Below are positions 39,066-57,449 of a stretch of DNA of 64,000 nt, piece after piece. The notes beneath the pieces are model-generated. The model ran no database searches. It saw only the letters and a list, made by a program, of their open reading frames with translations, and was not told the DNA's origin. The stretch is taken from the NCBI GenBank assembly GCA_948467495.1, contig CAOKEO010000003.1:9602-73601 (forward strand). Direction: 5' to 3'. Numbering within the stretch: position 1 is the stretch's first letter; every line of letters starts with the position of its first letter. The translations under genes were made by a program, and so were the position numbers. The DNA is from an uncultured Clostridium sp. (GTDB taxonomy: Bacteria > Bacillota > Clostridia > TANB77 > CAG-508).

Positions 39066-39189
39066 TTTTTTCACCTTCCTTTTTCTAATGACAAGGGACA
39101 CTCTTTTCTATTGGTTTATCCACTTGAGTTAAGGAATGTCCCTTTCCCCTAGTGAATTAGTGCTTACCCTATTTTATAAATTTTTCTTA

Positions 39190-40137
39190 CTATTCATCCT
39201 CTGAGGCAAAATCTAATCCCAATGAATGCAATTTTGCTGTTACTTCATCAAATGACTTTTTACCTAAATTTCTTACTTTCATCATATCCGTTTCAGATTT
39301 ATTGGTTAAATCTTCAACGGTAGCAATTCCTGCTCTTTTTAGACAGTTGAATGATCTAACAGATAATTCTAATTCTTCAATTGACATTTCTAATACTTTT
39401 TCTTTTTTAGATTCTTCTTTTTCAATCATAACTTGTGTATTTTTGGTTGCTTCTGATAAATCAATAAATAATTCTAGATGTCCTGTCATTACTTTAGCTG
39501 CTAAGCTTAAAGCTTCATGTGCTTTTAGGCTTCCATCTGTCCATACTTCAATCACTAATTTATCATAATCCACCATTTGACCAACTCTAGTATTTTCTAC
39601 TTGATAGTTGACTTTTTTAACTGGTGTATAAATAGAGTCAATTGGAAGCACAGATATATCCTGATTTGCTTTTTTATTTTTATCAGCAGAATTATATCCT
39701 CTACCTTTATCTGCTGTCATTTCCATTTTTAAACTTCCACCTTCAGAAATAGTAGCAATATGTAACTCTGGATTTAAGATTTCAACAGTTCCATCTGTAA
39801 TGATATCTCCTGCCTTAACTTCTCCTTGACCTTTCATATCAATTCTTAAAATTTTATCTTCATTGTCATCAAATTTTAATCTAACATTTTTCAAATTGAT
39901 AATAATTTCTGGCACATCTTCTACTATATTGGGAATGGTAGAAAATTCATGTAATACTCCATCTATTTTCACACTTGTTATAGCACATCCTGGAAGTGAT
40001 GAAAGTAAAATTCTTCTCAAAGAATTTCCTATTGTTACTCCATAACCTCTTTCTAATGGCTCACATACAAATTTTGCATAATTATTTGTATCATCAACCT
40101 CTAGACATTCAATATTTGGCTTTTCAAATTCTATCAT
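39190..40137 (-). CDS. rpoA: DNA-directed RNA polymerase subunit alpha
   Basis: 315 aa: [15 protein letters not shown]-terminal domain [16 protein letters not shown]. Confidence 0.97.
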
Positions 40138-40165
40138 TTTTACCTCCTAATATTTTAAAAAATTA

Positions 40166-40792
40166 TTATTTTGAGTAAAGCTCTACTATTAAATGTTCTT
40201 CAATTGGAATATCTATATCTTCTCTAGATGCTAATCTGATGACTTTACCGCTTACGTTTGCATTGTCTTTTTCTAGCCATTCTGGAACTGGTCTTTTACT
40301 TGATTCTTCTACATTTATTTTGATAGTAGCATTATCTTTTTTACTTTCTCTTACTGTAATAACATCTCCTGCTTTTACTAGATAAGATGGAATATCTACT
40401 TTTTTACCATTTACTTCAAATTGAGCATGATTTACGAATTGTCTTGCTTGTGCTCTCGATGTTCCAAATCCTAATCGATACACTACATTATCTAATCTAC
40501 TTTCTAATATTTGTAATAAATTTTCACCAGTTACACCTTTTTTATTAGAAGCCATTTCGAAGTATTTTCTAAATTGTTTTTCTCCTACCCCATAATATGC
40601 TTTTGTTTTTTGTTTTTCTCTTAATTGCATTCCGTATTCAGAAAGTTTTGCTCTTTTTTGTCCATGTTGACCTGGTGCATAGTTTCTTCTAGAAATACTA
40701 CATTTATCGGTATAACATCTTTCACCTTTTAAGAACAATTTTTGTCCTTCTCTACGACATCTACGACATTGTTCGTCTTTATATCTTGCCAT
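40166..40792 (-). CDS. rpsD: 30S ribosomal protein S4
   Basis: [26 protein letters not shown]... Start ATG 40792 with AAAGGAG upstream. Confidence 0.96.
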
Positions 40793-40864
40793 TTTCTTAC
40801 TCCTTTCTTCTAATGACAAGGGATACACTAATGTGTTGACCCTTACTTAATTTTTCTATCCATT

Positions 40865-41260
40865 TTATACTCTTCTTCTTTTTGGTGGTCTACAACCATT
40901 GTGTGGTATTGGTGTCACATCTTTAATGCTACTTAATTCAAGACCTGCTGTTTGAAGAGCACGAATTGCTGCTTCTCTACCTGAACCAGGCCCTTTTACA
41001 AATACTTCTACTGATTTTAATCCATGTTCCATAGCAGCTTTAGCAGCTGTTTCTGCAACTTGACCTGCTGCATATGGTGTACTTTTTCTTGAACCTTTAA
41101 ATCCTAATTCTCCAGCACTTCCCCATGCGATTGCATTTCCTTGTGTATCTGTAATAGTAACGATTGTATTATTAAAACTAGAATGAATATGTGCAGCTCC
41201 TTTTTCAATGTTTTTCCTATTTCTTCTAGCTACTTTTTTCGTTGTTACATTTTTAGCCAT
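40865..41260 (-). CDS. rpsK: 30S ribosomal protein S11
   Basis: [18 protein letters not shown]...[16 protein letters not shown]. Confidence 0.97.
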
Positions 41261-41396
41261 TTTGCTTTTTCCTCCTTATTCAAAAATTTCATTCTGAATT
41301 TCTATCTTTCTTTTAAGAAAATTTTTCACTGATTCTATAAAATTGATTAAAAATTATTTTACAATTAGCAAATTTAACCTTTTATCAATTGCTATG

Positions 41397-41583
41397 AAAT
41401 TGATTAAAAATAGTAAGATGTGCAATTTTCACATTCATTTTAATCCGAAGGTGTACATTGGTACATCGAGGTTATGATGATTACAATCTCACTTAGTTCA
41501 ATTGCATAAGTTATCTGTAGTCTGCTTTGCTTCACACAGCTAACTCAAAATTGTGCAGATTGCTGCTTTCAATCGATTTCACT
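41397..41583. repeat. composite repeat: long imperfect palindrome (core GAAGGTGTAC-ATTG-GTACATCGAGG) with a 68-bp CACAATCTCAC..CACACAGC module (41479..41546) inserted in its right arm
   Basis: The arms GAAATTGATTAAAAA.. and ..CTTTCAATCGATTTC are complementary. The inserted module recurs at six other sites. Confidence 0.75.
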
Positions 41584-41952
41584 CTATTTTTTGCTTTTGC
41601 TAACCAACTTCCTAGGACCCTTTCTAGTTCTAGCATTCGTTTTAGTTCTTTGTCCTCTAACAGGAAGACCTCTTCTATGTCTTAGTCCTCTGTAGCATCC
41701 TATTTCAGTAAGTCTTTTGATATTAAGAGCAACTTCTCTTCTCAAGTCTCCCTCTACTGTATATGATTCGTCAATTACTTTTCTAATATCATTTACTTGA
41801 TCATCTGTTAAATCTTTAATTCTAGTATCTGGATTTATACCAGCTTTTTCAAGAATTTTTCTAGAACTTGATACGCCTATACCATAAATGTAGGTAAGTC
41901 CTATTTCCACTCTTTTTTCCTTTGGTAAATCTACTCCTGCTATACGAGCCAT
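41584..41952 (-). CDS. rpsM: 30S ribosomal protein S13
   Basis: [26 protein letters not shown]... GGAGGTG 9 nt upstream of ATG 41952. Confidence 0.97.
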
Positions 41953-42177
41953 ATTTTTTTGCACCTCCAAATTTTTTAATACTTACAAATTCGCTTTGCT
42001 CATCTGTATCAATTTTTTATTTGTCCTAAAAACATTTAAAGGTGAAATGCTACTGGTGTTTACCCCAGTCTCTTTAACGTTTTAAGACATATATATAAAC
42101 ACAAATTTGATATGTAACCCCTATTTTACAAAGGCTCACAGCCGCTACCTAATTTGTGTTATGAACAAATATAAGGA

Positions 42178-42291
42178 TTAACCTTGTCTTTGTTTGTGTT
42201 TAGGGTTTTCACAAATAACTCTAATCACACCTTTTCTTTTTATAATTTTGCATTTATCACATATTTTCTTTACTGATGGTCTTACTTTCAT
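42178..42291 (-). CDS. rpmJ: 50S ribosomal protein L36
   Basis: My translation is [37 protein letters not shown]. It is below the ORF-track size cut-off. GAGGAGGTG upstream. Confidence 0.93.
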
Positions 42292-42511
42292 TTCTGCACC
42301 TCCTCTTTCTTGACAGGGGACACACCTTACTGTGTTGTTTTTTACTTAGGTTAAGGAATGTCTCCTCCCCTTAGATTAAGTGTCTCTACTTTTTAGTCCT
42401 CTGTTTTGTAGTTTCTATATTGGGTTAATTTTTAACTTTTTTACTATCCATACCAAAACAAATAAAATTATTGTTGTTCATTCCTGATTGCTCAAGCAAC
42501 AAGGTAATCAT

Positions 42512-42730
42512 TTACTTTGCTCTCCAAGTAATTCTTCCTCTTGTTAAGTCATAAGGTGACAACTCTACTTTCACCTTATCTCCTGGTAAAATTTTAATAT
42601 AGTTCATTCTCAATTTTCCAGAAATATGAGCTAATATCTGATGTCCATTTTCAAGTTCCACTTTGAAATTAGTATTTGGTAAAGATTCTACTACTTTTCC
42701 CTCTACCTCAATCACATCTTCTTTCGCCAA
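42512..42730 (-). CDS. infA: translation initiation factor IF-1
   Basis: (M)[52 protein letters not shown]... TTG start 42730 with AAGGAGGG 7 nt upstream. Confidence 0.95.
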
Positions 42731-42819
42731 TTTTTTTCCCTCCTTAAAGAGCACTTTTCCTTGATTATTATGCAAAATATGGCTATTTTGCATAATAACT
42801 ATTAGATTATATACTATTT

Positions 42820-43590
42820 TTAAAGTATTGTCAATATTTCCGGCTCTTTTTCTGTAATTAAAATGGTATTTTCATAGTGAGCTGCCAAACTCCCATCTTC
42901 TGTCATAATCGTCCACCCATCATCTAATTCTAAAATATTAGGCTTTCCTGCTATTACCATGGGTTCTATCGCCAATGTCATACCTGGTTCCAATCGAATT
43001 CCCCTTCCTGCTTTTCCATAATTAGGAATCCCTGGATCTTCATGCATTTCTTTTCCAATGCCGTGTCCTTGAAACTCTCTTATAACAGAATATCCTTGTG
43101 AACGTACATACTCTCCAATCGCATGACATACATCACCAATTCGATTTCCTACTTTAGCATATTGAATGCCTTCAAAAAATGCTTGTTTGGTCACTTGCAC
43201 TAGTCTTTCCGCCTCTTTTGATGCTTTCCCAACAAGAAAGGTTCTAGCAGCATCGCCATGATAGCCATTTTTTAAAGCAACTGTATCAATACTTACCACA
43301 TCGCCCTCTTTTATAATTCTATCTTTAGAAGGAATTCCATGAATTACCTCATCATTAATAGAAACACAAAGGGAAGCTGGAAAAGGTGGTACTCCTTTGA
43401 TTCCAATATCATATCCTTTTTCTGCTGGAATCGCCCCCAAACTTCTCATTTTTCGTTCTGCTATTTGGTCTAATTCCCATGTTGACATCCCTGGCTTGAT
43501 ATGTTGTTCTAGTTCCTGATATGTTAATGCAACAACTTTACATACCTCTTGCATTAAAGTAATCTCTTTTTTTGACTTAATGGTTACCAA
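42820..43590 (-). CDS. map: type I methionine aminopeptidase
   Basis: 256 aa with metal ligands in ..[14 protein letters not shown].., ..GHGIG.. and ..AIEPM... TTG start. Confidence 0.93.
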
Positions 43591-43671
43591 CTTAACTCGT
43601 CCTCTCTCTTTTCTAGTTAATGCTATTTATCTACCTAAGGTGTATCTATTATTTTTTACACCTTAAATAGA

Positions 43672-44331
43672 TTACACTGATTTTATGATATCTTCTGCTA
43701 CATCTTTTCCCATCCTATTAATAGAAGTACTTACTGTCTCTGTTCTTAAAACTCCTTTGTTTTCGTAGTATTCTACTAATGGGCTGGTTTGTTCTTCGTA
43801 AATTTGTAATCTCTTATGAATTGCCCCTGAATTACAATCATCTTCTCTTTGTTTCAAAGAAGAACCACATTTATCGCAAATCCCATCTACTTTTGGTGGA
43901 TTTAATTTAATATTATAAGTTGCTTTACAATCTTGATTCGTACATACTCTTCTTGTTAGCATTCTATCAATCAACTCTTCTTTTGGTGTTTGTAAATTAA
44001 TGACTAAATCTACTTTTTTTCCAAACTCTTGTAAAATTTCATCTAATTTTTCAGCTTGTTGTATGGTTCTTGGAAAACCATCTAAAATAGCACCATTTTG
44101 TGCATCCTCTTCTTTTAAACGATTGATTACCATAGGAACCGTTATCTCATCTGGTACCAATTCTCCTTTTGCCATATATTCATTTGCTTTCATTCCTAAT
44201 TCTGTTTTTTCACTAAGATTTTTTCTGAAAATATCCCCTGTTGATATCTGTGGCCACCCCTTTTGTTGGCTAATTAGTCCTGCTACTGTTCCCTTTCCTG
44301 TCCCTTGTGCTCCTAACATGATAATTACCAT
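43672..44331 (-). CDS. adk: adenylate kinase (Cys4 zinc lid)
   Basis: MVIIMLGAQGTGKGT P-loop, lid CTNQDCKATYN...CDKCGSSL. Confidence 0.93.
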   Translation of the reverse strand: MVIIMLGAQGTGKGTVAGLISQQKGWPQISTGDIFRKNLSEKTELGMKANEYMAKGELVPDEITVPMVINRLKEEDAQNGAILDGFPRTIQQAEKLDEILQEFGKKVDLVINLQTPKEELIDRMLTRRVCTNQDCKATYNIKLNPPKVDGICDKCGSSLKQREDDCNSGAIHKRLQIYEEQTSPLVEYYENKGVLRTETVSTSINRMGKDVAEDIIKSV

Positions 44332-44608
44332 ATAAATCCCTCTTTTCATCTTATAAAAATTAGATTATTATATAAATTGTCTAAAACGCAATTAATAATC
44401 TTTATCATATCTATTCTTTTCCTATTCATAAACATGATAAAAATTATTAAATAGAACAACAGTGGCATGTTAAAATTTCTTCACCTTTTAGATTAGTTTT
44501 CATGCCACACCCGTTGTTCGTTCGCCAAAATTGCAAGCAATTTTCTGTAAAATGCTTTCTATTATAGGAAATTCAGAGAATTTTCCTATAATAGAACAAA
44601 ACTAAGAT

Positions 44609-45928
44609 TTATTCTAAGAAACCTTTATAGTGTCTCATCGCTAATTGAGATTCTAGTTGTTGTACCGTTTCTAAAGCAACTCCCACAACAATTAAGATAG
44701 ATGTCCCACCAAATGCAATATTTAGATTGGTAAATCTCAATAACATTGGCAAGATAGCTATTACTGCTAAGAATAATCCTCCAAATACCGTTAATTTAGA
44801 TATAATAGATGATAAATATTCAGTGGTTGGTTTACCAGCTCTAATTCCTGGTATAAATCCGCCATTTTTCTTAATATTATTGGATACTTCTGCTGGATTA
44901 AAAGTAGCATACGTATAGAAAAAAGTAAATCCAACAATTAATAGTAAATAAACAAGAGCATTTGCTATCGAATAGCTAATTCCTACATCAGATGTAGAAG
45001 TAGCAATTGAAAAATTATATAATCCTGCTAAAAATCCCGTATGACTTGCTATATCTGGTACAAAAATTTGAATAATCATAGCTGGAAATGTCATAAAAGA
45101 AGAAGCAAAAATAACTGGCATAACTCCTGCCATAGCAAGTTTTAATGGAATATGTGTACTTTGTGCACCTACCATTTTTCTTCCCACTACTTTTTTAGAA
45201 TATTGTACTGGTACTCTTCTTTCTGCTTGTTGAACAAATACTACTCCTGCTACTAATACTAAAGCACCTATAACAATTCCAATTGCTGTCAATAATCCTG
45301 TTGTGCTAAAGCCTTGTTCTGTCATTATTTGATTCCATAAAGTTGGCAGACCACTTGGTAATCTTGAAATAATACCAATAAAGATTAATAAAGAAATTCC
45401 ATTTCCAATTCCTTTATTGGTAATTTGGTCTCCTAACCACATAAGAACAGATGTACCTGCTACTAGTCCAACCACTACTAATGAACCTGTTAGGAAACTT
45501 TGATTCACAAATATACCAGAAGATTTATAAGATAAATAAACTCCAATTGCTTCTACTAACGCTAAAATAATAGTTAATATTTTGGTATATCTATTTATTT
45601 TTTGTCTTCCTTCTTCTCCGCCTTCTTTGGTCAATTTTTCTAAAGCTGGTATAATCATAGCCAATAGTTGAATCACAATAGAGGCTGTTATGTATGGACT
45701 AATTGACATAGCAAAAACAGAAAATCTAGAAAATGCCCCTCCTGAAATCATATCAATTAATCCTGCAAATCCATTCGTATTTCCCATTGCTTCATTTAGT
45801 GCTACACTATTTACACCTGGTACTGTAATAAAGCACCCAAGCCTAAATACAACAATTAGCACTAATGTGTATAATAGTCTTTTTCTTACATCTGGCGTCT
45901 TTATTGCATTTTTGATTGTTTTAAACAA
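44609..45928 (-). CDS. secY: preprotein translocase subunit SecY
   Basis: 439 aa, 10 TM helices, typical SecY sequence. TTG start directly after the rplO stop with GAGGTGG upstream. Confidence 0.96.
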   Translation of the reverse strand: MFKTIKNAIKTPDVRKRLLYTLVLIVVFRLGCFITVPGVNSVALNEAMGNTNGFAGLIDMISGGAFSRFSVFAMSISPYITASIVIQLLAMIIPALEKLTKEGGEEGRQKINRYTKILTIILALVEAIGVYLSYKSSGIFVNQSFLTGSLVVVGLVAGTSVLMWLGDQITNKGIGNGISLLIFIGIISRLPSGLPTLWNQIMTEQGFSTTGLLTAIGIVIGALVLVAGVVFVQQAERRVPVQYSKKVVGRKMVGAQSTHIPLKLAMAGVMPVIFASSFMTFPAMIIQIFVPDIASHTGFLAGLYNFSIATSTSDVGISYSIANALVYLLLIVGFTFFYTYATFNPAEVSNNIKKNGGFIPGIRAGKPTTEYLSSIISKLTVFGGLFLAVIAILPMLLRFTNLNIAFGGTSILIVVGVALETVQQLESQLAMRHYKGFLE

Positions 45929-46363
45929 TTAAACCACCTCAGCCTTTCCGCCTAAAGCTTCAATTGCTTCTTTGGCTTTTGCTGTAAATCTTTTTGCTTT
46001 AATATTTAACTTCTTGTCTAATTTTCCTGTTGCTAACACTACGATTCCATCATTAACTTTTCCGATAATTCCTTCTGCCAATAAGGTTTCTGCTGTTACT
46101 TCGGTAGCTTTTGATAGATTTAACATTTTTAATGTTACCTCTGTATAAGTTTTGGCATGAATATTGGTGAAACCTCTTTTTGGTAATCTTCTATATAATG
46201 GTGTTTGACCACCTTCAAAACCTCTTCTTACGCCTCCACCACTTCTTGCTTTTTGTCCTTTATGTCCTCTTCCAGATGTCTTTCCATTTCCAGAAGCCAT
46301 TCCACGACCTACTCTATTTCTCTTTACTTTACCTACAGTTGGTTTTAACTCATTTATTTTCAT
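45929..46363 (-). CDS. rplO: 50S ribosomal protein L15
   Basis: [53 protein letters not shown] upstream of ATG 46363. Confidence 0.95.
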
Positions 46364-46419
46364 TTGGTATTTTGCACCTCCTCTTTCTAAGTTAGCCGTT
46401 AGCGACAAAGGAGCTTTAC

Positions 46420-46636
46420 GGATAACTTATGCAAAATGCGTAAGCATTTTGTAATCCTTAATTTCCTTCTTTTGCCTTTCTCTACCTATGATGAATTATG
46501 GATAACATGCACAAAATGCGCAAGCATTTTGTAATCCTTAATTTCCTTCTTCTGCCTTTCTCTACCTATGATGAATTATGGATAACATGCAAAATGCGTA
46601 AGCATTTTGTAATCCTTAATTCTCTTCTTTGCCTCT
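46420..46636. repeat. tandem repeat, 80-bp period, 2.7 copies, occupying the position where rpmD (L30) normally lies
   Basis: Units start at 46420, 46500 and 46580. Each has an 8-bp hairpin CAAAATGC-GTAA/GCAA-GCATTTTG. Confidence 0.9.
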
Positions 46637-46650
46637 TAGCTATATTCACA

Positions 46651-47136
46651 TTATAAAATATCTTCTACTTTTTTACCTCTCTTTTTAGCCACTTGTTCTA
46701 CTGTTTGCATAGCCTTTAATCCTTCAATTGTAGCATAAACAACATTTCTTGGATTATTGGTTCCAATAACTTTTGTTCTAATATTTCTATAACCAGCTAG
46801 TTCCATAACTGGTCTTACGCTTCCACCTGCTATGATACCAGTACCAACTGCTGCTGGTTTTAGCATAACTTTAGCACTACCAAAAGTCCCAACATATTCA
46901 TGAGGTACAGTTGTTTCAACGATTGGCACTTCCACTAAGTTCTTTTTCGCTTCTTGGATTGCTTTTTTGATAGCATCTGGAACTTCTGCTGCTTTACCAT
47001 TTCCTACACCTACATGACCATTTTCGTCTCCTACTACTACGACAGCACTAAATCTAAAAGTTCTACCACCTTTAACAACTTTAGCAACTCTATTAATAGC
47101 TACAACCTTTTCTTTTAATTCATTTTTCTCTTCCAT
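46651..47136 (-). CDS. rpsE: 30S ribosomal protein S5
   Basis: [26 protein letters not shown].... Confidence 0.97.
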
Positions 47137-47229
47137 AGGTTTTTGTTAATCCTCCTTTTCTTGTTTTTGTCAAGGGACACTTTATTTATCCATAAGTGTT
47201 TACCCTATCTTAATTTCTGATATTTATTT

Positions 47230-47589
47230 TTAGAACTTAAGTCCACCTTCTCTTGCTGCTTCTGCTAGTTCTTTAACAACACCATGATAAATATATCCAC
47301 CACGGTCAAAAACAACGGTTTCAATCTTTTTATCAGCTGCTTTTTTAGCAATTAAAGTACCTAATTCTTTAGCGGCTTCTTTATTAGCATGTTTTGTTTT
47401 GATTTCCTTATCTAATGTTGAAGCTGATACTAATGTATTTCCTGCAACATCATCGATAATTTGTACATATAAATTTGTATTACTTCTATATATACATAAT
47501 CTTGGTCTTTCTAGTGTTCCAGATATCTTTCTTCTTACACGAATGTGTCTTCTCGTTCTTTCCATTTTTCTATCTGTCTTTTTAACCAT
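47230..47589 (-). CDS. rplR: 50S ribosomal protein L18
   Basis: [25 protein letters not shown]...[27 protein letters not shown]. Confidence 0.97.
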
Positions 47590-47632
47590 TTCCTTACTCC
47601 TTTCTAAAAATTGAGTTTTTACTATTCATTCA

Positions 47633-47759
47633 TAATTCAAATCAAATTTGATATATTGTGCATTTTTCAGATTGATTACAAGCCGAAGGTGTACGTTGGT
47701 ACATCGAGGTTTGAAATCAATATGGAAAATGTACAAAATGTTAATTTTCATTTGAATTA
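47633..47759. repeat. 127-nt imperfect palindrome filling the rplF-rplR spacer
   Basis: Pairing partners sum to 95392 (e.g. 47681:47711). Inner hairpin GGTGTAC-GTTG-GTACATC. 5 G:T pairs and no A:C pairs on the plus strand. Confidence 0.85.
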
Positions 47760-47761
47760 GT

Positions 47762-48298
47762 TTATTTTCCAGTCTTACCTTCCTTACGTCTAATAACCTC
47801 ATCAGCGTATTTAATCCCTTTTCCTCTATACACTTCTGGTGGTCTTTTCATTCTAATAACTGCTGCTGTTTGACCAACTAATTCTTTATCAATTCCATTT
47901 ACAATAATCGTATTAGCATTTGGAACATCAAAAGTAATTCCATCTGGTGCTTCAAAAATAACTGGATGTGAATAACCTAAAGTTAAATTTAAGTTATTTC
48001 CTTGTTTTGCTACTCTATATCCAACACCATTAATTTGTAATTCTTTACTATAGCTACTGGTTACACCAATAATCATATTATTGATTAATGTCCTAGTTAA
48101 GCCATGTAAGCTTCTGTTAGCTGGTTCATCATCTTTTCTAGTAACTGTAATGATATTATCTTCCATTTTAACAGAAATATTTTTATGTATTTCTCTTGCT
48201 AATGTACCTTTTGGTCCTGTTACAGTAATATTTTGTCCTTCTATTTTCACTTGTACTTCTGATGGTACTGTGATAGGTTTATTTCCTATTCTTGACAT
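47762..48298 (-). CDS. rplF: 50S ribosomal protein L6
   Basis: MSRIGNKPITVPSEVQVKIEGQNITVTGPKG.... Confidence 0.97.
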   Translation of the reverse strand: MSRIGNKPITVPSEVQVKIEGQNITVTGPKGTLAREIHKNISVKMEDNIITVTRKDDEPANRSLHGLTRTLINNMIIGVTSSYSKELQINGVGYRVAKQGNNLNLTLGYSHPVIFEAPDGITFDVPNANTIIVNGIDKELVGQTAAVIRMKRPPEVYRGKGIKYADEVIRRKEGKTGK

Positions 48299-48380
48299 TA
48301 TTTTCCCTCCTTTTTTAATGATTACAATCTCACTTTGCTCGATTGCATAAATTATTTGTAGTTCGCTTCACACAACTAAC

Positions 48381-48779
48381 TTACCATACATAGGCTAATA
48401 CTTCTCCACCAACACCTAATTCTCTAGCTTCTTTATCTGTTTTTAGTCCTTTTGATGTAGAAATGATAGCAATTCCTAATCCATTTAATACCTTTGGTAA
48501 TTCTTCTTTGGATGCGTACACTCTTAATCCTGGTTTACTAATTCTTTTTAAACCATCAATTACTCTGGTTCCTTTTTCATCATATTTTAGTGTAATTCTT
48601 ATGATTCCTTGTGTATCATCTTTGATTTCTTCAAAAGATTTTATATATCCTTCTTTGAATAGAATTTCAGCAATTCCTCGTTTCATATTGGAAGCTGGAA
48701 CATCTACTGTTTTATGCTTTGAACTATTTGCATTTCTAATTCTTGTTAACATATCTGCAATTGGATCTGTAATGTTCAT
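48381..48779 (-). CDS. rpsH: 30S ribosomal protein S8
   Basis: [18 protein letters not shown]...GGEVLAYVW. Confidence 0.97.
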
Positions 48780-48866
48780 GAATTACTTACCTCCTTTTCT
48801 TCTTTCTTAGCAAGGGGCTTATTTCCCCTTCTTATCTTTATTTTAGCATTTATTTATTTGTTAAAA

Positions 48867-48981
48867 AAATCAAAATTAGTATATTGTGCATTTTTGTTAA
48901 GTTTTTCAAGATGAAGGCGTACACGAGTACGTCGAAATTTGAAAAACTTACTGAAAATGTGCAAGATGCTGATTTTCATTT
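48867..48981. repeat. 115-nt imperfect palindrome in the rpsN-rpsH spacer
   Basis: Pairing partners sum to 97848. Inner hairpin GGCGTAC-ACGA-GTACGTC. 7 G:T pairs and no A:C pairs on the plus strand. Confidence 0.85.
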
Positions 48982-48987
48982 ATTTTA

Positions 48988-49173
48988 TTACCAGCTGGCT
49001 TTTTTTACACCTGGAATCTCTCCCTTATGTGCTAACTCTCTAAAACATACACGGCATATACCATATTTTCTGATATAGCTATGTGGTCTTCCACATAATT
49101 TACATCTGTTGTATTCTCTTGTTTTATATTTTTGTGGTCTAGCTTGTTTTATTTTCATTGACTTTTTAGCCAT
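48988..49173 (-). CDS. rpsN: 30S ribosomal protein S14, zinc-binding type Z
   Basis: 61 aa, [23 protein letters not shown]. Confidence 0.96.
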
Positions 49174-49194
49174 AATTTTACTCCTTTCTTACAG

Positions 49195-49477
49195 TTCACA
49201 ATCTCACTTTGTTCGATTGCGTAAGTCATCTGTAATTCGCTTAGCTTCACACAGCCTACTACTGAATGTTCACAATCTCACTCGTTCGATTGCGTAAGTC
49301 ATCCGTAATTCGCTTCGCTTCACACAGCCTACTACTGAATGTTCACAATCTCACTTCGTTCGATTGCGTAAGTCATCTGTAGTTCGCTTCGCTTCACACA
49401 GCCTACTACTGAATGTTCACAATCTCACTCGTTCGATTGCGTAAGTCATCTGTAGTTCGCTTCGCTTCACACAGCTG
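49195..49477. repeat. tandem array (3.8 copies, 73-74 bp) of the CACAATCTCAC..GATTGCGTAAGTCATCTGTA..CACACAGC module
   Basis: Units start at about 49195, 49269, 49342 and 49416. The last unit overlaps the final codons and stop of rplE. Confidence 0.92.
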
Positions 49478-50012
49478 ACTTAAATGGCATTCCTAATGCT
49501 TGTAATAATTCTTTTGATTCTTCGTCTGTTTTGGCTGTTGTTACAAATATGATGTCCATTCCTCTTAATTTATCAACTTTGTCATATTCAATTTCAGGGA
49601 ATATTAATTGTTCTTTTACTCCCATAGAGTAATTTCCTCTACCATCAAAAGAGTTTGTTGATACTCCTCTAAAATCTCTTACTCTTGGAAGGGCTACATT
49701 GAATAATTTGTAAGCAAAGTCATACATTTTGTCTGCTCTTAATGTTACTTTACATCCTATGTTCACACCTTCTCTTAATTTAAATGCTGCAATTGATTTT
49801 TTTGCTTTTGTAATAACTGGTTTTTGTCCTGTTATTTGCATTAAATCATTCATCGCATTTTCCAATGCTTTTGGATTTTCTTTTAAATCTCCTAATCCTA
49901 TATTAATTACTATCTTATCAAGTTTTGGTACTTGCATCACTGATTTATATTCAAATTTTTTCATTAATGCTGGGATTACTTCCTTTTCATATTGTTCTCT
50001 TAATTTTTCCAT
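49467..50012 (-). CDS. rplE: 50S ribosomal protein L5
   Basis: [20 protein letters not shown]...[15 protein letters not shown]. Start ATG 50012. Confidence 0.95.
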
Positions 50013-50038
50013 AATCAACGAATCCTCCTTTCTTTCTT

Positions 50039-50347
50039 CTATTTTATGGTCGCACCGCATTTTTTACAAACACGTACTTTTTGGTCTTTTTCTATTTGAT
50101 ATCCAATTTTTGTAGCTTTACCACATTTTGAACATACTACATTTACTTTTGAACTTGGTATAGCACATTCAATTGCTATGATTCCGCTTTCTTCTCCTTG
50201 TTTTCTGGCTTTTACATGTTTTTTTCTAACATTTACACCTTTTACAATGATTTTATCAGTCTTTGGATTGATTTGTAACACTTCTCCTGTTTTACCTTTG
50301 TCATTTCCTGATAAAACTTGAACGTTATCACCTTTTTTGATTCTCAT
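50039..50347 (-). CDS. rplX: 50S ribosomal protein L24
   Basis: [23 protein letters not shown] (KOW motif). Confidence 0.96.
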
Positions 50348-50400
50348 TTAGGAATTTCCTCCTTTTCTTAGTTTTTATTTTTATTCTCTGTTGTAAAACG

Positions 50401-50640
50401 AATTAGAATTAGTATATTGTGCATTTTGCTGATACTGTTAAGCTTTAGCTGTTACAGTATCAGTATGCAAATGAATTTTATATTCATTTGCCCTCATTTC
50501 ACTAACTTCAAGCTGAAGGCGTACTCTTGTATGTCGAAATTATAATGACTACAATCTCACTTCGTTCGATTACATAAGTTATCTGTAGTTCGCTTTGCTT
50601 CACACAGCTAACTCAAAAATGCACAAGATGCTGATTATAA
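50401..50640. repeat. composite repeat: outer palindrome carrying two different inserted modules
   Basis: Left arm 50401..50430, double-hairpin module 50431..50512, core hairpin GAAGGCGTAC-TCTT-GTATGTCGAAA, CACAATCTCAC module 50547..50614, right arm AAAAATGCACAAGATGCTGATT. Confidence 0.75.
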
Positions 50641-50646
50641 TTTGTT

Positions 50647-51015
50647 TTATAGAACTTCTGGAGCTAATGAAAGAATTTTCATATACTCCTTCTCTCTTAA
50701 CTCTCTTGCAACTGGTCCAAAGATACGAGTTCCCTTTGGCGTTCCATCTTCTTTAATAATAACAGCTGCATTTTCATCAAATTTTATATATGAACCATCT
50801 GCTCTTCTTAATCCACTCTTAGATCTAACAATAACAGCTTTTACAACATCACCTTTTTTAACAACGCCACCTGGTGTTGCTGATTTAACAGAAGCAACTA
50901 TAACATCTCCTATATTAGATGTTTTTCTAAATGATCCTCCTAAACATCTGATACACATGATTTCTTTCGCCCCTGTGTTGTCTGCTACTTTTAATCTTGA
51001 TTGTTGTTGTATCAT
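50647..51015 (-). CDS. rplN: 50S ribosomal protein L14
   Basis: [23 protein letters not shown].... Confidence 0.98.
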
Positions 51016-51031
51016 TTTGGTTCCTCCTTTC

Positions 51032-51295
51032 CTACTTTATATCTGCTTTTTCTACAACTTCAACTACTCTCCATCTTTTATCTTTAGAAAGTGGTCTTGT
51101 TTCCATTACTTTTACTTTATCACCCATTTGGCAAACATTTTCTTCATCATGTGCTTTTAATTTGTAAGTTCTTTTTACTGTTTTACCATATACTTTATGA
51201 CTAACACTAGTTTGAACAGCTACTACTACTGTTTTATCCATCTTATTAGATGTTACTGTACCAATCATAACTTTACGAAGATTTCTTTCTTCCAT
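51032..51295 (-). CDS. rpsQ: 30S ribosomal protein S17
   Basis: [16 protein letters not shown]...[23 protein letters not shown]. Confidence 0.97.
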
Positions 51296-51421
51296 TTAGA
51301 TTTCTCCTTTCTAATAATGTCAGGGGACACACCTCTTCCCCTTAGGTATTCCACTTAAGTTTGGGAAATAGCCCCTCTCCTTGCTTTTAAGTGTTTACCT
51401 TTTTGCTAACATATTTCATTT

Positions 51422-51628
51422 TTATGCTTTAGCATCTAGCATTTTTCTTTCTGTCAATACGGTATTTATTTTAGCTATATCTTTTTTTACCTCTTTTATT
51501 TTCATAGGATTATCTAATCCGTTGGTAGCTAAACTAAATTTTAATTTGAACAATTCTGTTTTTAGTTCACCTAATTCTTTCTCTAAATCTGGTGAAGACA
51601 TTTCTCTTATTTTATTTATCTTCATCAT
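51422..51628 (-). CDS. rpmC: 50S ribosomal protein L29
   Basis: [34 protein letters not shown] 51628 is preferred over the track's GTG at 51634. Confidence 0.93.
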
Positions 51629-52055
51629 TTTCACCTACCTTTTCTGTTTCTCTTGCTACAAATTTTGTTTTGTTAGGTAGTTTGTTCATAGCAAGTCTTA
51701 AGGCTTCTTTTGCAGTTTCTTCTGATACTCCAGAAATCTCAAACATTACTCTTCCTGGTTTTACAACTGCAACCCAATATTCTGGCGCACCTTTACCTTT
51801 ACCCATACGAGTTCCAATAGGTTTTGCTGTAATTGGTTTGTCTGGAAAGATTTTAATCCAAACTTTTCCACCTCTTTTTATATAACGAGTCATAGCAATT
51901 CTGGCTGCTTCAATTTGATTTCCTGTAATTAAAGCACCTGTTACTGCTTGGATTCCATATTCTCCATCTGTAACTTTATTTCCTCTTGTTGCCTTTCCTC
52001 TCATTCTACCTTTTTGTACTTTTCTATGTTTTGTTCTTTTTGGCATTAATGGCAT
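51612..52055 (-). CDS. rplP: 50S ribosomal protein L16
   Basis: [22 protein letters not shown].... Confidence 0.97.
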
Positions 52056-52711
52056 TATTGGTCTCCTCCTTCCATTTTCTTCTCTGGAAGAACTTCTCCT
52101 TTATAAATCCAAACTTTTACACCGATTTTACCATAGGTTGTATCTGCTTCTGCAAATCCATAATCAATATCAGCTCTTAAAGTTTGTAGTGGAATATTTC
52201 CTTCTTTATAGAATTCAGTTCTAGCCATGTCAGCTCCACCTAATCTTCCAGATACAGCAGTTTTAATTCCTAAAGCACCTGCTTTCATAGATTTTTGCAT
52301 ACATTGTTTCATGGCTCTTCTGAATGAAATTCTTCTTTCTAATTGTCCTGCAATATTTTCTGCTACTAATTGAGCATCTGTATCCATATTTTTAACTTCT
52401 ACGATGTTTAAATTAACATCTTTACCAATTAATTTTGTTAATTCTGCTTTTACACTTTCTACACCTGCTCCACCTTTTCCAATAACAATTCCTGGTTTTG
52501 CCGTGTGTAAATTAACCTTGATTGCTTTTGCTGTTCTTTCAATTTCAATTTTAGAAATACCAGCAAGATATAATTTTTTCTTTAAAAATTTACGAATCTT
52601 TTGATCTTCTACTAAATAATTTGCAAAGTTTCTTGAATCTGCATACCATTTAGAATTCCAATCTTTTATGATTCCAACTCTTACTCCTGTTGGATGTACT
52701 TTTTGTCCCAT
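52055..52711 (-). CDS. rpsC: 30S ribosomal protein S3
   Basis: [24 protein letters not shown].... Confidence 0.98.
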
Positions 52712-52718
52712 ATTATTC

Positions 52719-53084
52719 CTAGTCCTCCTTTTCTTTCAAAACTATTGTAATGTGACTTGTTCTTTTTCTAATTCTTACTGCTGAACCTTTTGCAGCTGGA
52801 CGTATTCTTTTTAAAGTTGGTCCTTGATTGCTATAGATTTCAGCAACATATAATTTCTCATGTCTCATGTCATGATTATTTTCAGCATTTGCGATAGCTG
52901 ATTTTAATAATTTCTCTATGATTTCTGATGATGCTTTTGGTGTGAATTTTACGATAGCTAAAGCTTCATCTACATCTTTTCCTCGAATTAAATCTGCTAC
53001 GATTTTAACTTTTCTAGCTGAAATCCTTGCATATTTCAAGGTTGCTTTTGCTTCGTTTCTAACTAATGTTTCTTGCTCTTGCAC
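52719..53084 (-). CDS. rplV: 50S ribosomal protein L22
   Basis: [25 protein letters not shown]... GTG start with AAGGAGG upstream. Confidence 0.95.
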
Positions 53085-53156
53085 TTTTCTTACCTCCTTA
53101 GATTAGTGTCTAGGGGCTACTTATCCATTTAAGTTTTTCCCCTTCTATTTGTCTCT

Positions 53157-53432
53157 CTATTTATTTGTTTTCTTATCTCCTGCATGACCTTTGAAGGTTC
53201 TTGTAGGAGCAAATTCACCTAATTTATGACCAATCATTTCTTCTGCTATATAAATTGGAACATGTTTTCTTCCATCATGTACAGCAATTGTATGACCAAC
53301 CATTTGTGGATATATTGTTGAAGCTCTAGACCATGTCTTTAAAACTTCTTTATTTCCAGATTCATTCATAGCTTCTACTCTTTTTAGTAGTTCTGGTGCT
53401 ACATATGGTTTTTTCTTGCTTGATCTTGACAT
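53157..53432 (-). CDS. rpsS: 30S ribosomal protein S19
   Basis: [30 protein letters not shown].... Confidence 0.97.
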
Positions 53433-53460
53433 ATTATAAATGTCCTCCCTTCTTTTTTTA

Positions 53461-53576
53461 GTAAGTTATCCGTAAAACTCACTTCGTTCGCTAACGGCTT
53501 TTCTATTGTTCACAATCTCCCTTTGGTCGATTGCGTAAGTTATCCGTAGAGCTCGCTTTGCTCGCTAACGGCTAAC
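53461..53576. repeat. 1.6 copies of the CACAATCTC..GATTGCGTAAGTTATCCGTAG..GCTAACGGCTAAC module variant
   Basis: Begins immediately after the rplB stop (TGA-GTTAGCCGTTAGCG in mRNA sense). An inverted fragment lies at 46391..46432. Confidence 0.8.
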
Positions 53577-54404
53577 TCACTTTCTTCTCTTTACAATAAA
53601 TTTATTAGATTGTTTCTTTTTATTTCTTGTTTTATATCCAAGAGCTGGTTTACCCCAAGGTGTCATTGGTCCAGCGTGTCCTACTGGTGCTCTACCTTCA
53701 CCACCACCATGAGGGTGATCTACTGGGTTCATTACAGAACCTCTAACAGTTGGTCTAATTCCCATATGTCTTTTTCTACCAGCTTTACCAATTTTAACAT
53801 TCTCATGATCACTATTTCCGATTACTCCGATAGTAGCTCTACAGGTTGCTAAAATTAATCTCATTTCTCCTGATGGAAGTCTTACATGGGCATATTTTCC
53901 TTCTTTTGCCATTAATTGTGCACTTTGTCCTGCTGCTTTTACTAATTTTCCACCTTGTTTTGGATTTAACTCAATGTTATGAATTAAAGTACCTACTGGA
54001 ATTGAACTAATTGGCATACAGTTTCCTGGTTTGATATCAGCTGTTTCTCCAGATATCACTTTATCTCCATCTTTTAATCCTTGTGGAGCTAAGATATATG
54101 CTTTTTCTCCATCTTCGTATTCCACTAATGCAATATTAGCACTTCTGTTTGGATCATATTCAATTCCTATTACAGTTGCTGCCATATCGTCTTTTCTTCT
54201 TTTAAAATCTACTATTCTATATTTTTGTCTATTTCCACCACCTTGATGTCTTACTGTGATTCTTCCATAGGAGTTTCTTCCTGCATTTTTCTTTTTCTTT
54301 GCTAATAAAGATTTCTCAGGAGTTTTCTTTGTAATTTCTCCAAAGTCTGAAACTGTCATATTTCTTCTAGATGGTGTATAGGGTTTGAAGTGTTTCATTC
54401 CCAT
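53577..54404 (-). CDS. rplB: 50S ribosomal protein L2
   Basis: [14 protein letters not shown]...[15 protein letters not shown]. Start ATG 54404 (AAAGGAG upstream). Confidence 0.96.
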
Positions 54405-54675
54405 TTTTTTCTCCTTTCTCGAATTCATGAAAAACTTCGTTTTACGTCGTTACTGATGCTATTAAAGCTTTGCTTGTTACTGCATTAGTATGCAGTTTGC
54501 GTAGCAAACTGACTTCATTAAGTTTTCCTAGTAATACTCGTTTTTGTTGAATTCTCTACTCTACTGATTGGTTTTCGAGAGTAGTTGCGGACTTTTTCCT
54601 GCTCCGCATAACAGATATTCTTTATTTTCCTGGTATTTTCCAGCTAATTTTTTTATCTAATTTCCATTTGTGTAC

Positions 54676-54868
54676 GAAATTGATTAAAAGTGATATATTG
54701 TGCATTTTGCTGATATTGTTAAGCTTCAGCTGTTACAATATCAGTATGCAAATGAATTTTATATTCATTTGCCTCCATTTTCTTAATCTTAAACTGAAGG
54801 CGTACGTTGGTACGTCGAAATTTGTAATCAATAGCGAAAATGTGCAAGATGTTGCTTTTAATCGATTT
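54676..54868. repeat. composite repeat: outer palindrome with inserted double-hairpin module
   Basis: Arms GAAATTGATTAAAAG.. and ..CTTTTAATCGATTTC. Inserted module 54711..54796. Core GAAGGCGTAC-GTTG-GTACGTCGAAA. Ends at the rplW stop codon. Confidence 0.8.
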
Positions 54869-55216
54869 CTAGGCACCCATGAATTCGTCAATACTATCTT
54901 TGTATTTTTTCGTAACTTTTGTTGCTTTTCCACCTTTTGCTAAATAAGAGGTATCTTCTGGATTAGTATCAATTGTAACAATTGCTTTCTTCCAATCTGA
55001 AGTCTTACCAATGTGGTAACCAACTCTTTTCTTCTTACCATTTACATTCATGGTATTCACTTTTAAAACTTTTACCTCAAAAAGTTTTTCAACAGCTTTT
55101 GCTATTTCCACTTTTGTTGCTTTTTTATTTACTTTGAAAGTGTATTTTCCTTCTTGCAATTGATCATTACTTTTTTCTGTAACAATTGGTGCTACAATAA
55201 TCTCTTCTGGTTTCAT
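54869..55216 (-). CDS. rplW: 50S ribosomal protein L23
   Basis: IVAPIVTEKSNDQLQEGKYTFKVNKKATKVEIAKAVEKLFEVKV.... Confidence 0.95.
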   Translation of the reverse strand: MKPEEIIVAPIVTEKSNDQLQEGKYTFKVNKKATKVEIAKAVEKLFEVKVLKVNTMNVNGKKKRVGYHIGKTSDWKKAIVTIDTNPEDTSYLAKGGKATKVTKKYKDSIDEFMGA

Positions 55217-55840
55217 TTAAGCGTACACCTCCTCTAATTTTTTAACAGTATCTACTGGTAAAATTAGATTTGTATATTTTAATAAATCAAATACATTAAT
55301 ATTATTGGCAGTAATTGTTTTAACTCCTTCAATATTTCTAGATGACATAAAAACATTTTTATTGTTTTCTGGAAGAACGATTAATGTTTTTCCTTCTACT
55401 TTTAAATCTGTTAAAGCCTTTACCATTGTCTTTGTTTTGATTTCTTTTACTTCTAATTTATCTACTACTGTTAATTCTTTTTCTAACACTTTAGAACTTA
55501 AGATTGATTTAATTGCCAATCTTCTTTCTTTTTTATTAACGGTATATTTGTAAGAACGAGGTTTTGGTCCTAATGCGATACCACCTTTAATCCATTGTGG
55601 GCTTCTTGTAGAACCTTGTCTTGCTCTACCTGTTCCTTTTTGTCTCCATGGTTTTTTACCACCACCAGAAACTTCTGCTCTTGTTTTAGTACTTCCAGTA
55701 CCTTGTCTTTGATTAGCTAAATAGTTTACTAACACACTATGTACAATGTTTTCATTTGGTTCAATTCCAAATACAGTGTCAGCTAATTCTATATCACTTA
55801 CTTTTTTACCTTTTAAATCATATACATCTACTTTTGGCAT
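55217..55840 (-). CDS. rplD: 50S ribosomal protein L4
   Basis: RQGTGSTKTRAEVSGGGKKPWRQKGTGRARQGSTRSPQW. Confidence 0.97.
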   Translation of the reverse strand: MPKVDVYDLKGKKVSDIELADTVFGIEPNENIVHSVLVNYLANQRQGTGSTKTRAEVSGGGKKPWRQKGTGRARQGSTRSPQWIKGGIALGPKPRSYKYTVNKKERRLAIKSILSSKVLEKELTVVDKLEVKEIKTKTMVKALTDLKVEGKTLIVLPENNKNVFMSSRNIEGVKTITANNINVFDLLKYTNLILPVDTVKKLEEVYA

Positions 55841-55858
55841 TATCTTTTCCTCCTTCCT

Positions 55859-56491
55859 CTATTTACTAGCCTTTACAGCTGATTTTACTTTTAGGATAGC
55901 TCCTTTTGCTCCTGGAACGCTTCCTTTTACTAAAATTACATTTTTATCCATATCTACTCTTACAACATCTAAGTTTTGAATTGTAATAGTAACTCTTCCC
56001 ATATGTCCTGGTAATTTCTTACCTTTAAATACTCTACCTGGTGTTGAAGTAGATCCCATTGAACCTGGTCTTCTATGATACATAGAACCATGTCCCATTG
56101 GTCCTCTGTGTTGACCATGTCTTTTGATAACACCTTGGAACCCTTTTCCTTTTGATATTCCTTGTACATCTACTTTTTCTCCTGCTTCGAAAATGTCTGC
56201 TTTGATTTCATCTCCTACTTTGTAGCCTGCTACATCTTCTACTCTGAATTCTCTTAGATGTTTTTTATTAGCAAGTTTTGCTTTTGCAAAATGTCCTGCT
56301 TCTGGTTTGTTTATATGTTTATCTTTGATTTCTCCGTATCCTAATTGAATGGCATCATATCCATCTGTTTCTACTGTTTTTACTTGTGCTACAATATTTC
56401 CTGCTGTTTCGATAACAGTAACTGGAATGACGTTTCCTTTTTCATCGAAGATTTGTGTCATACCGATTTTTTTTCCGATAATTCCTTTCAT
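55859..56491 (-). CDS. rplC: 50S ribosomal protein L3
   Basis: [28 protein letters not shown].... Confidence 0.98.
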
Positions 56492-56728
56492 TTTCTTTCC
56501 TCCTAACTATTGGCTGAAAATAATAATTCTAAACTTCGTCTCACTTCGTTAAATTTCGTTCTAAAATCCCCGACCTACACAAGTACGCCTCCGGTTTTAT
56601 CACTTATTTGCCTTGTGATACTCGTTTTAAATTCTTATTTAGATTTCGGCTTGGTTTTGCTGAGGCTGTTAAATTTGTTTGTCACAGCATCAGTATGCAA
56701 ATACATTAAGCATTTGTTTTGCTTAATC

Positions 56729-57052
56729 TTACAATTTTATCTCTATGTCAACACCAGCTGGTAACTCTAATTTCATTAGACTGTCCACTGTTTTTTGTGT
56801 TGGATAAAGTATATCGATTACTCTTTTATGGGTTCTCATTTCAAATTGTTCTCTTGAATCTTTGTATTTGTGTGGAGAACGTAAAATTGTTACGATTTCT
56901 TTTTGTGTTGGTAATGGAATAGGACCTGAAACCTTTGCTCCTGTTTTTTTAGCAGTATCTACTATCTTTTCAGCAGACTGATCTAAAACTACATGGTCAT
57001 ACGCTTTCAATCTTATTCTAATTTTCTCACTTGTTGCTATTGTGTTTGCCAT
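56729..57052 (-). CDS. rpsJ: 30S ribosomal protein S10
   Basis: [40 protein letters not shown]. Confidence 0.98.
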
Positions 57053-57067
57053 TGTAATTTTCCCTCC

Positions 57068-57203
57068 TTCTTTTTATGTTCACAATCTCATTTTATTCGA
57101 TTGCGTAAGTTATCTGTAACTCGCTTCGCTTCGCACAGCTACTACTGTTCACAATCTCATTTTATTCGATTGCGTAAGTTATCTGTAGCTTGCTTCGCTT
57201 CGC
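57068..57203. repeat. two tandem 69-bp copies of the CACAATCTCA..GATTGCGTAAGTTATCTGTA..CGCACAGC module inside the S10 leader
   Basis: Units start at 57068 and 57137. The array ends 15 nt upstream of the rpsJ start codon region (SD GAAGGAGGG). Confidence 0.9.
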
Positions 57204-57265
57204 ACAGCTAACTTAATTACCTTGGCAAGTTAAAACGCACTCTGGTGTTTCGAATATCACCTATA

Positions 57266-57297
57266 GAAAAACCCAAAATGTGCATGATAATTTTGGG
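57266..57297 (-). terminator. terminator-like hairpin inside the S10 leader (possible attenuator)
   Basis: Minus strand CCCAAAAT-N10-ATTTTGGG followed by TTTTTC, about 125 nt downstream of the promoter -10 and 210 nt upstream of rpsJ. Confidence 0.45.
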
Positions 57298-57420
57298 ATA
57301 AGTACATTTCTTACCGCCTGGTCTTTGCCATAACATACTCCACCAAAGTTCCCTCCATTCCATATTTCCGTAGGAATGTAGCCACATTTGGCTTCAACGC
57401 TTATTCATTCATGCTTATCT

Positions 57421-57449
57421 ATTATACAACCCTTATTTCCGTATGTCAA
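57421..57449 (-). promoter_or_regulatory. consensus sigma-A promoter of the S10 operon
   Basis: Minus strand TTGACA (57449..57444), 17 nt, TATAAT (57426..57421). Confidence 0.75.

Follow-up and report, generated by a model that had tools for sequence, protein, structure and literature searches.

A Hairpin in the rplF-rplR Spacer

We analyzed a stretch of 64,000 nt from an uncultured Clostridium sp. (GenBank assembly GCA_948467495.1, contig CAOKEO010000003.1, positions 9,602 to 73,601; the whole stretch is hereafter called the window and carries its own numbering). In its ribosomal-protein cluster, two minus-strand genes confirmed with Pfam, rplF (L6; 47762-48298) and rplR (L18; 47230-47589), flank a 172-nt spacer, 127 nt of which are taken up by an imperfect hairpin (47633-47759). 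This hairpin is one copy of a widespread, uncatalogued repeat family of about 125 nt, here called the H element (table 1). Folded as RNA, the plus strand of the hairpin reached -56.8 kcal/mol (z = -10.3), a value that none of 200 shuffles equaled, compared with -31.4 kcal/mol (z = -4.5) for the minus strand, which has the sense of the mRNA. Because rplF and rplR lie on the minus strand, the strand that folds well is antisense to the operon mRNA.

A sequence-only reading of the hairpin had placed its pairs in the register i+j=95392, with a shifted apical stem, and our inspection bore out both this register and the shift (to 95393). Each of the five wobbles that it cited was recovered (47689:47704 GT, 47667:47725 TG, 47660:47732 GT, 47652:47740 TG, and 47650:47742 GT), as were its five mismatches (47678:47714 AA, 47655:47737 AA, 47670:47722 GA, 47647:47745 TT, and 47643:47749 CC). 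Its total of five wobbles was incomplete, as a sixth G:T pair is found at 47682:47710 (GT); against these six, A:C pairs are absent from the helices of the hairpin, as had been claimed. Two boxes and an apical core stand out within the structure. The 5' box, TGTGCATTTT, was invariant in the cross-phylum alignment A3, although it belonged to the search pattern, and the T:G and G:T pairs of the boxes were kept in 55-58 of the 61 Clostridia copies. The apical core consists of a 7-bp stem with a conserved G:U and a variable tetraloop, beneath which lies a GAA/GAA-type purine internal loop; a K-turn reading of this core was rejected on inspection, because the loop is symmetric and has no 3-nt bulge. 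We also rejected an intrinsic terminator, since a terminator scan reported none at 47633-47759 on either strand and the element lies between co-transcribed essential cistrons.

Table 1. H Element Copies, Parts of the Target Hairpin, and Module C in the Window (CM, covariance model; folding energies in kcal/mol)
Feature	Position	Strand	Remarks
Compact H element copy	47633..47759	+	CM score 129.5 bits on + vs 62.5 on -; L6-L18 spacer
5' box TGTGCATTTT	47657..47666	+	Pairs with 3' box via U:G/G:U wobbles
Apical core hairpin GAAGGTGTAC-GTTG-GTACATCGAGG	47685..47709	+	Core columns invariant or near-invariant in alignment A1
3' box AAAATGTACA, variant of AAAATGTGCA	47726..47735	+	
rplF stop codon TAA	47762..47764	-	2 nt from 3' end of hairpin
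Second compact copy	48863..48985	+	S14-S8 spacer; CM 120 bits on +; fold -46.5 vs -26.8
Long composite copy	50394..50649	+	L14-L24 spacer: 5' arm, hairpins A, B, core, module C, 3' arm
Long composite copy	54676..54869	+	L23-L2 spacer: 5' arm, hairpins A, B, core, 3' arm
Composite copy	41392..41586	+	S13-S11 spacer: core + module C + 3' arm; CM 50 bits on +; BLAST
Module C, four tandem copies	49190..49515	-	Folds better in mRNA-sense orientation
Module C, more copies	48313-48381, 53461-53612, 57071-57216, 50551-50616, 41478-41548		

Pairing Is Selected on the Strand Complementary to the mRNA

We tallied mismatches by aligning the 5' arm of each copy to the reverse complement of its 3' arm, with scores unable to favor either strand. 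Over 61 distinct copies, this strand-neutral tally gave 2823 Watson-Crick pairs, 438 G:T, 22 A:C, and 442 other mismatches, and G:T outnumbered A:C in every one of the 61 copies. Purine-purine mismatches exceeded pyrimidine-pyrimidine mismatches (354 vs 88), a skew to the same strand as that of G:T, and the mean fold was -57.2 kcal/mol for the G:T strand and -30.1 kcal/mol for its complement. A CM-fitted alignment of 62 copies, which, unlike the strand-neutral tally, leans towards the modelled structure, had 96.6% of its cells paired, compared with 31-45% when the partners were slid; in the same alignment, compensatory changes on both sides were observed in 33 of 45 pairs, and none of 500 shuffles did as well. 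The outermost helix was the most variable, with all nine of its nine pairs covarying. In columns where Watson-Crick pairs were commonest, G:U filled 72 cells and reached up to 19 of the 61 sequences, whereas A:C filled 16 cells and never occurred in more than three sequences; both kinds of mutation arise but only one of them persists. A tally across copies was among the checks that the sequence-only reading had named, and its claim that the plus-strand fold is the selected one is backed by the family-wide G:T excess, the compensatory changes, and the mismatch skew.

Usual mutation biases predict the opposite pattern. The plus strand has a GC skew of -0.2 to -0.36 in the window and thus reads as the lagging strand in sequence (the leading-strand template), and deamination of the exposed sense strand would put G:T on the sense strand. 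Module C, another repeat in these ribosomal-protein spacers, folded better in the sense orientation in all of its 24 distinct copies, so the strand method is able to report either strand. These results demonstrated that pairing in the H element is selected on one strand only, the one complementary to the host mRNA.

Copies in Clostridia Lie Antisense at the Stop Codons of Highly Expressed Genes

A covariance model, R1, built from 41 copies, detected five copies in the window, all on the plus strand and all in the ribosomal-protein cluster (match spans 41392-41586, 47630-47764, 48858-48992, 50391-50654, and 54745-54875), and none in the remaining ~47 kb beyond that cluster. A context-blind core scan of one genome per species, with the pattern GAAGGCGTAC-N4-GTACGTCGAAA, yielded 39 loci, 36 of them from low-GC uncultured gut Clostridia. 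A two-box scan returned at least 120 stretches, and the counts of this family census are lower bounds: both scans together gave at least about 180 copies at some 110 loci in low-GC uncultured gut Clostridia, with the conserved boxes 57-79 nt apart. The 21-base core motif was also found in exact form, flanked by stems of its own, once each in a Ruminococcus metagenome-assembled genome (MAG; L005 5606-5630), an unclassified MAG (L011 32-56), and a Helicobacteraceae MAG (L012 3650-3674); the gene contexts of these three matches were inconsistent, and they may be chance hairpins or distant relatives.

All recognizable genes flanking the Clostridia copies run opposite to the G:T strand, on which only low-complexity shadow open reading frames (ORFs) were present. 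The flanking genes encode ribosomal proteins (S7, S12, S8, S14, S13, S11, L6, L18, L14, L24, L5, L11, L1, L10, and L7/L12), as well as EF-G, RpoB, NusG, GrpE/DnaK, Frr/PyrH, GlyRS, IleRS, Pta/AckA, pyruvate:ferredoxin oxidoreductase, and FabG/FabF, and the copies are situated inside unidirectional operons, which speaks against an antisense RNA made by read-through. In 92 of 114 labelled copies, the 3' end of the element was -5 to +8 nt from the last sense codon of the upstream gene; the distance to the next start codon varied from 13 to >300 nt, and the flanks of the element were not conserved apart from the stop codon. The copies thus occupy the transcribed spacers of highly expressed genes, antisense to them and with the 3' end towards the upstream stop codon. 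A ribosomal-protein autoregulatory leader was rejected, because the selected strand is antisense and the element also follows non-ribosomal genes.

Copies Are Gained, Lost, and Rebuilt among Close Relatives

Among close relatives, copies are gained and lost, exchange internal modules, and build tandem arrays. The L6-L18 spacer of locus L006 is empty and only 28 nt long. In loci L018 and L022, the proteins of which are 97-100% identical to those of the window, the same spacer carries the same 5' arm and other modules but neither core nor 3' arm; the 5' arm is followed there (L018 1497-1659, L022 5853-6015) by hairpin A (CTGATACTGT...ACAGTATCAG), hairpin B (GCAAATGAAT...ATTCATTTGC), and a T-run, which suggests recent modular exchange. 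Within tandem arrays, the stop-proximal copy had the most negative fold in 10 of 10 cases and also the highest family score in 7, which fits the entry of new copies at the stop codon and the decay of older ones.

Relatives in Distant Lineages

Outside Clostridia, the box scan yielded hairpins in multiple copies from Desulfovibrio caledoniensis and Pseudodesulfovibrio karagichevae (61-67% GC), in Sterolibacterium and Collimonas, and in several Saccharimonadales. Their common layout comprises outer stems, TGTGCATTTT, a stem, an apical part, a stem, AAAATGTGCA, and outer stems. The copies of Desulfovibrionaceae and Saccharimonadales share the apical hairpin G(C/T)GTA(C/G) NNNN (G/C)TACG, which was outside the search pattern and yet recurs at the same spacing, and this supports homology; in Sterolibacterium and Collimonas, the boxes are common, but the interior is larger and branched and lacks that hairpin. 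As in Clostridia, the copies of these lineages fold better on the G:T strand, so that the bias is present in genomes of 27-67% GC. Of the Desulfovibrionaceae copies, 11 have a gene close by, and all 11 run antisense to that gene, nine at 0-18 nt from its stop codon and the other two at 69-84 nt; the unit as a whole has the stop codon on one side and a terminator-like hairpin on the other. On one Desulfovibrionaceae contig, two copies are oppositely oriented, each antisense to its own neighbor, which indicates that orientation tracks transcription rather than replication.

Ten Desulfovibrionaceae loci (L050, L052, L090, L124, L144, L153, L060, L070, L074, and L104) also carry a conserved extra module, GGAGCGATTCGGGTGC-loop-GCACCCGACAGCGGCTC, which on the G:T strand is placed ~60-130 nt 5' of the hairpin. 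This module has a covarying inner stem but no strand asymmetry. Upstream of this module are a pyrimidine-rich run and the terminator-like hairpin.

Searches for Known Families and for a Partner Protein

Rfam 15 reported two tRNAs only over the whole window and nothing at the elements of nine loci from other phyla, and permissive Rfam scans of the window element and a Desulfovibrio copy gave low-scoring eukaryotic microRNA-precursor or unrelated models, far below gathering scores. In viral contigs, the core pattern had 0 matches and the box pattern 9, none of which formed a box-to-box hairpin; these were judged to be chance. BLAST found no match for the Desulfovibrio and Sterolibacterium copies in plasmids or for the Collimonas copy in Escherichia coli genomes, the window element itself not having been searched in either set. 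Full-text literature searches with the box sequences and related concepts found no account of the repeat family, and group II intron domain V, dif/Xer sites, and CRP half-sites were rejected because none of them fitted beyond a few bases. No HUH-type ORF was noticed on reading the window ORF translations, for which no profile search aimed at HUH was made; Pfam, applied to a few ORFs, gave a UPF0236 fragment, a XerC/D-type recombinase, and housekeeping proteins.

Comparison with Known Repeat Systems

In a REPIN, two conserved sequences are inverted around a spacer that differs from copy to copy and yet pairs, and the whole is thought to fold as single-stranded DNA (ssDNA) or RNA (PMC3337134). 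The H element resembles this design, as a non-autonomous hairpin of ~100 nt with two short inverted conserved boxes and a variable pairing spacer (33/45 pairs covary), and, like REPINs, it is multi-copy, intergenic, and often near stop codons (PMC12306157). Unlike repetitive extragenic palindromic (REP) sequences, however, its boxes TGTGCATTTT and AAAATGTGCA form no stem-loops alone and carry no conserved GTAG (or CGTC) tag; GTAG-like strings appear in some lineages only, in the Desulfovibrionaceae apical stem and the Sterolibacterium flanks. It further differs from REPINs in that its orientation is fixed to the neighbor gene, its copies are restricted to highly expressed genes instead of being genome-wide, and the same boxes occur in four distant lineages, with no RAYT identified in the 64-kb window or the 8-kb loci of the other genomes.

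The attC sites of integrons are imperfect palindromes of 57-141 nt just downstream of an ORF, in which the bottom (template) strand is folded and structure is conserved more than sequence. The folded strand of the H element is likewise the bottom strand and its site directly 3' of an ORF. It lacks, however, the R''/R' (RYYYAAC/GTTRRRY) boxes at the hairpin base and the AAC/GTT pair, since in gene orientation the elements start with a sequence such as AAATCGATTAAAAG and finish with one such as CTTTAAATCAATTT; moreover, its neighbors are core housekeeping genes rather than cassettes, with no integrase or attI context. With the palindrome-associated transposable elements (PATEs) of IS200/IS605, it shares the absence of target-site duplication and of classical terminal inverted repeats, the dependence on a hairpin, and a single insertion orientation. 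The active strand of those elements is on the lagging-strand template, the sense strand of co-directional genes, opposite to the folded strand here, and the H element has no conserved tetra- or pentanucleotide target beyond the stop codon and no TnpA or TnpB that we saw. ERIC/IRU, Correia/NEMIS, RUP, BOX, and Bacillus cereus bcr1 are transcribed repeats resembling MITEs (miniature inverted-repeat transposable elements), some with compensatory support for an RNA structure. They too are modular, imperfect palindromes of 100-170 nt in transcribed intergenic regions, but they occur in both orientations, have any structure in the transcribed sense, and mostly have TA or similar duplications and conserved termini, whereas the H element has variable termini, a conserved interior, and an antisense orientation. 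A classical MITE with terminal inverted repeats (ERIC, Correia, RUP) was rejected on the grounds that the outermost helix is the most variable and that there is no duplication at ten filled sites.

Few stretches of bacterial genomes are as compact and conserved as ribosomal-protein operons, and most spacers here are swollen to 80-550 nt by oriented repeats. The H element departs from three rules of known repeat families: the selected strand is not that of the mRNA, the orientation is antisense, and the site is at the stop codons of highly expressed genes. With 10-nt boxes common to at least three phyla, it implies a strand-specific process beyond known REP/RAYT, IS200/IS605, integron, or MITE biology, and it points to a previously undescribed single-stranded form. 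Two carriers are cultured Desulfovibrionaceae, so the question is directly testable, and the covariance model can be used to annotate these elements in gut MAGs, the "intergenic" regions of which are inflated by them.

A Mobile Palindrome of Template-Strand Polarity and Its Rivals

We propose, with a probability of roughly 0.5, that the H element is a non-autonomous, REPIN-like mobile palindrome whose propagating single strand has the polarity of the transcription template. The strand, orientation, and position of the copies are observed; the mechanism we infer from them. The element would be copied via a single-stranded intermediate with the polarity of the template strand, and a structure-specific protein encoded elsewhere would recognize the boxes and the apical hairpin in that intermediate. 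New copies would be inserted just downstream of the stop codons of heavily transcribed genes, and older copies would be displaced from the stop codon and then decay. The complement in the mRNA would form a weakened hairpin only, with C:A and pyrimidine mismatches, which may be why the host tolerates the element in essential operons.

Several points weigh against this proposal. It is weakest on the exposure of the template strand, for which no transcription-linked process is known: it is the sense strand that is single-stranded both in transcription, as the non-template strand, and in co-directional replication, as the lagging-strand template, and ssDNA transposons of the IS200/IS605 type would use that sense strand, the opposite of the one that folds here. 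The tandem 5'-UG-3'/3'-GU-5', which is conserved, and the sheared G:A motifs are suggestive of RNA. No consistent target-site duplication was found at ten filled and four empty S14-S8 sites or at the L6-L18 sites. A search for a parent element carrying ORFs found none, with no pair of arms more than 177 nt apart, and the 64-kb window and the 8-kb loci of other genomes, which were all that was covered, yielded no HUH transposase, recombinase, or reverse transcriptase as a partner. In Saccharimonadales and Sterolibacterium, the orientation rule is unclear, at least two copies appearing sense-oriented on crude gene calls, and the box-pair census, at no fewer than 120 stretches, is incomplete.

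The strongest competitor, although we regard it as unlikely, is a set of cis-antisense small RNA genes, the plus-strand transcript of which would fold and act on the ribosomal-protein mRNA (e.g., through RNase III processing) or bind a protein. G:U wobbles, favorable tandem UG/GU pairs, and purine internal loops are classic RNA features; in three window copies, the 5' arm contains a sigma-70-like match that is weak (9 of 12) and has TATATT as its last bases; the long forms have a hairpin B that resembles a plus-strand terminator; and the L6-L18 spacer of loci L018 and L022 holds a unit made up of the 5' arm, hairpin A, hairpin B, and a T-run. However, the covarying helices P1 and P2 include the -10-like hexamer and extend upstream of it, so that such a transcript would miss half of the structure. 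We rejected an internal promoter on two grounds: covarying helices enclose the hexamer, and its A2, which is G in several copies, is not conserved. Promoter-like matches in the region numbered 48, compared with 66 in shuffles; the high-GC relatives have no promoter-like sequence at the hexamer position, and antisense transcription would run head-on in unidirectional, very highly expressed operons. We therefore consider an ssDNA form more likely than an antisense RNA, because the only promoter-like hexamer is contained in covarying outer helices, because it is unconserved where a promoter needs it, and because the copies sit in unidirectional, heavily transcribed operons without a source of antisense transcription.

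Somewhat more doubtful still is the reading that these hairpins represent an undescribed class of bacterial mobile elements tied to transcription or translation and not to replication. Its active strand, as complementary DNA (cDNA) or ssDNA of template polarity, would be complementary to the mRNA and would insert where the untranslated bases begin, behind the stop codons of heavily expressed genes, and a partner enzyme would recognize the boxes from gut Clostridia to Desulfovibrionaceae and Saccharimonadales.

A retro-type cycle appears improbable to us. Either host mRNA would be reverse transcribed, the G:T-strand cDNA being the folded intermediate, or target-primed reverse transcription, starting at a nick in the non-template strand where that is exposed, would copy an RNA of the element. 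No other simple route leads to a full-length single strand of template polarity, and such a cycle would jointly explain the antisense orientation, the bias towards abundant mRNAs, and the placing of the boundary where translation ends; the Desulfovibrionaceae unit, between stop codon and terminator-like hairpin, indeed lies within the 3' untranslated region. However, no copy was seen to have a reverse transcriptase close by, neither poly-A nor a priming signature was recognized, the targeting of new stop codons is left unexplained, and the idea is purely conjectural.

We give similarly little credence to a host-beneficial element of the sense mRNA, namely an intercistronic stabilizer, a device holding the stop codon and the following ribosome-binding site near each other, or a REP-like regulator of translation termination, for which the plus-strand bias would be incidental. 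Folding of the sense RNA still reaches about -30 kcal/mol, preservation is best in the stop-proximal copy, and the position right after the stop recalls E. coli REPs (PMC12306157), a passage of which, citing Liang et al. 2015, states that those within 15 nt of stop codons stall ribosomes. An RNA selected in the sense orientation should nevertheless accept G:U pairs (read as A:C on the plus strand) no less readily than C:A, and the reverse was found (16-22 vs 430-438); in addition, the sense-strand mismatches are of the most destabilizing kinds, and it is module C, in the same spacers, that has the look of a sense-selected structure.

Finally, a neutral DNA palindrome with a G:T excess from strand-biased mutation, although compatible with the strong strand composition skew of the window and with the inheritance of several wobble positions (those of TGTGCA are, as the sequence-only reading had cautioned, inherited between copies and hence not independent events), is very improbable, in agreement with that reading, because replication- and transcription-linked deamination hits the sense (leading, non-template) strand and would put G:T there, because compensatory double changes in 33/45 pairs cannot arise neutrally, and because the bias persists across genomes of 27-67% GC.

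Other Repeats and Features of the Window

Module C (cacaatctca...cacagctaact) is distinct from the H element but shares the ribosomal-protein spacers and has the same fixed orientation. It makes two hairpins, one with a G:U, and is present in related MAGs too; its mean fold over 24 copies was -18.4 kcal/mol in the sense orientation vs -11.2 kcal/mol in the other, and the S14-L5 spacer folded at -46.0 on the plus strand and -82.9 on the minus strand. Within the S10-spc-alpha cluster (39102-57605), many spacers are of unusual length and measure, for example, 172, 208, 242, 293, 299, 323, 440, 541, and 553 nt, and most of the long ones examined hold oriented repeat modules. The S5-L15 spacer (46416-46634), the usual site of rpmD (L30), contains three tandem 77-nt units with the hairpin ACAAAATGC-GCAA-GCATTTTGT and no L30 ORF; the short S5-L15 spacers of relatives also have no room for one.

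Just past rplQ (L17), the minus strand encodes a 140-aa UPF0236 (ISLre2-type) transposase fragment (37792-38214). Three other long inverted repeats (5711-5837, 10296-10437, and 33122-33298), intergenic and located beyond the ribosomal cluster, have arms of 36-43 nt that are 74-89% complementary; their sequences are unrelated to that of the H element. Two adjoining ORFs on the plus strand (17013-18968) lie amid minus-strand genes, near two tRNA genes at 16127-16302; judging from its sequence, the first resembles a DNA methyltransferase, and the pair may represent a restriction-modification island.
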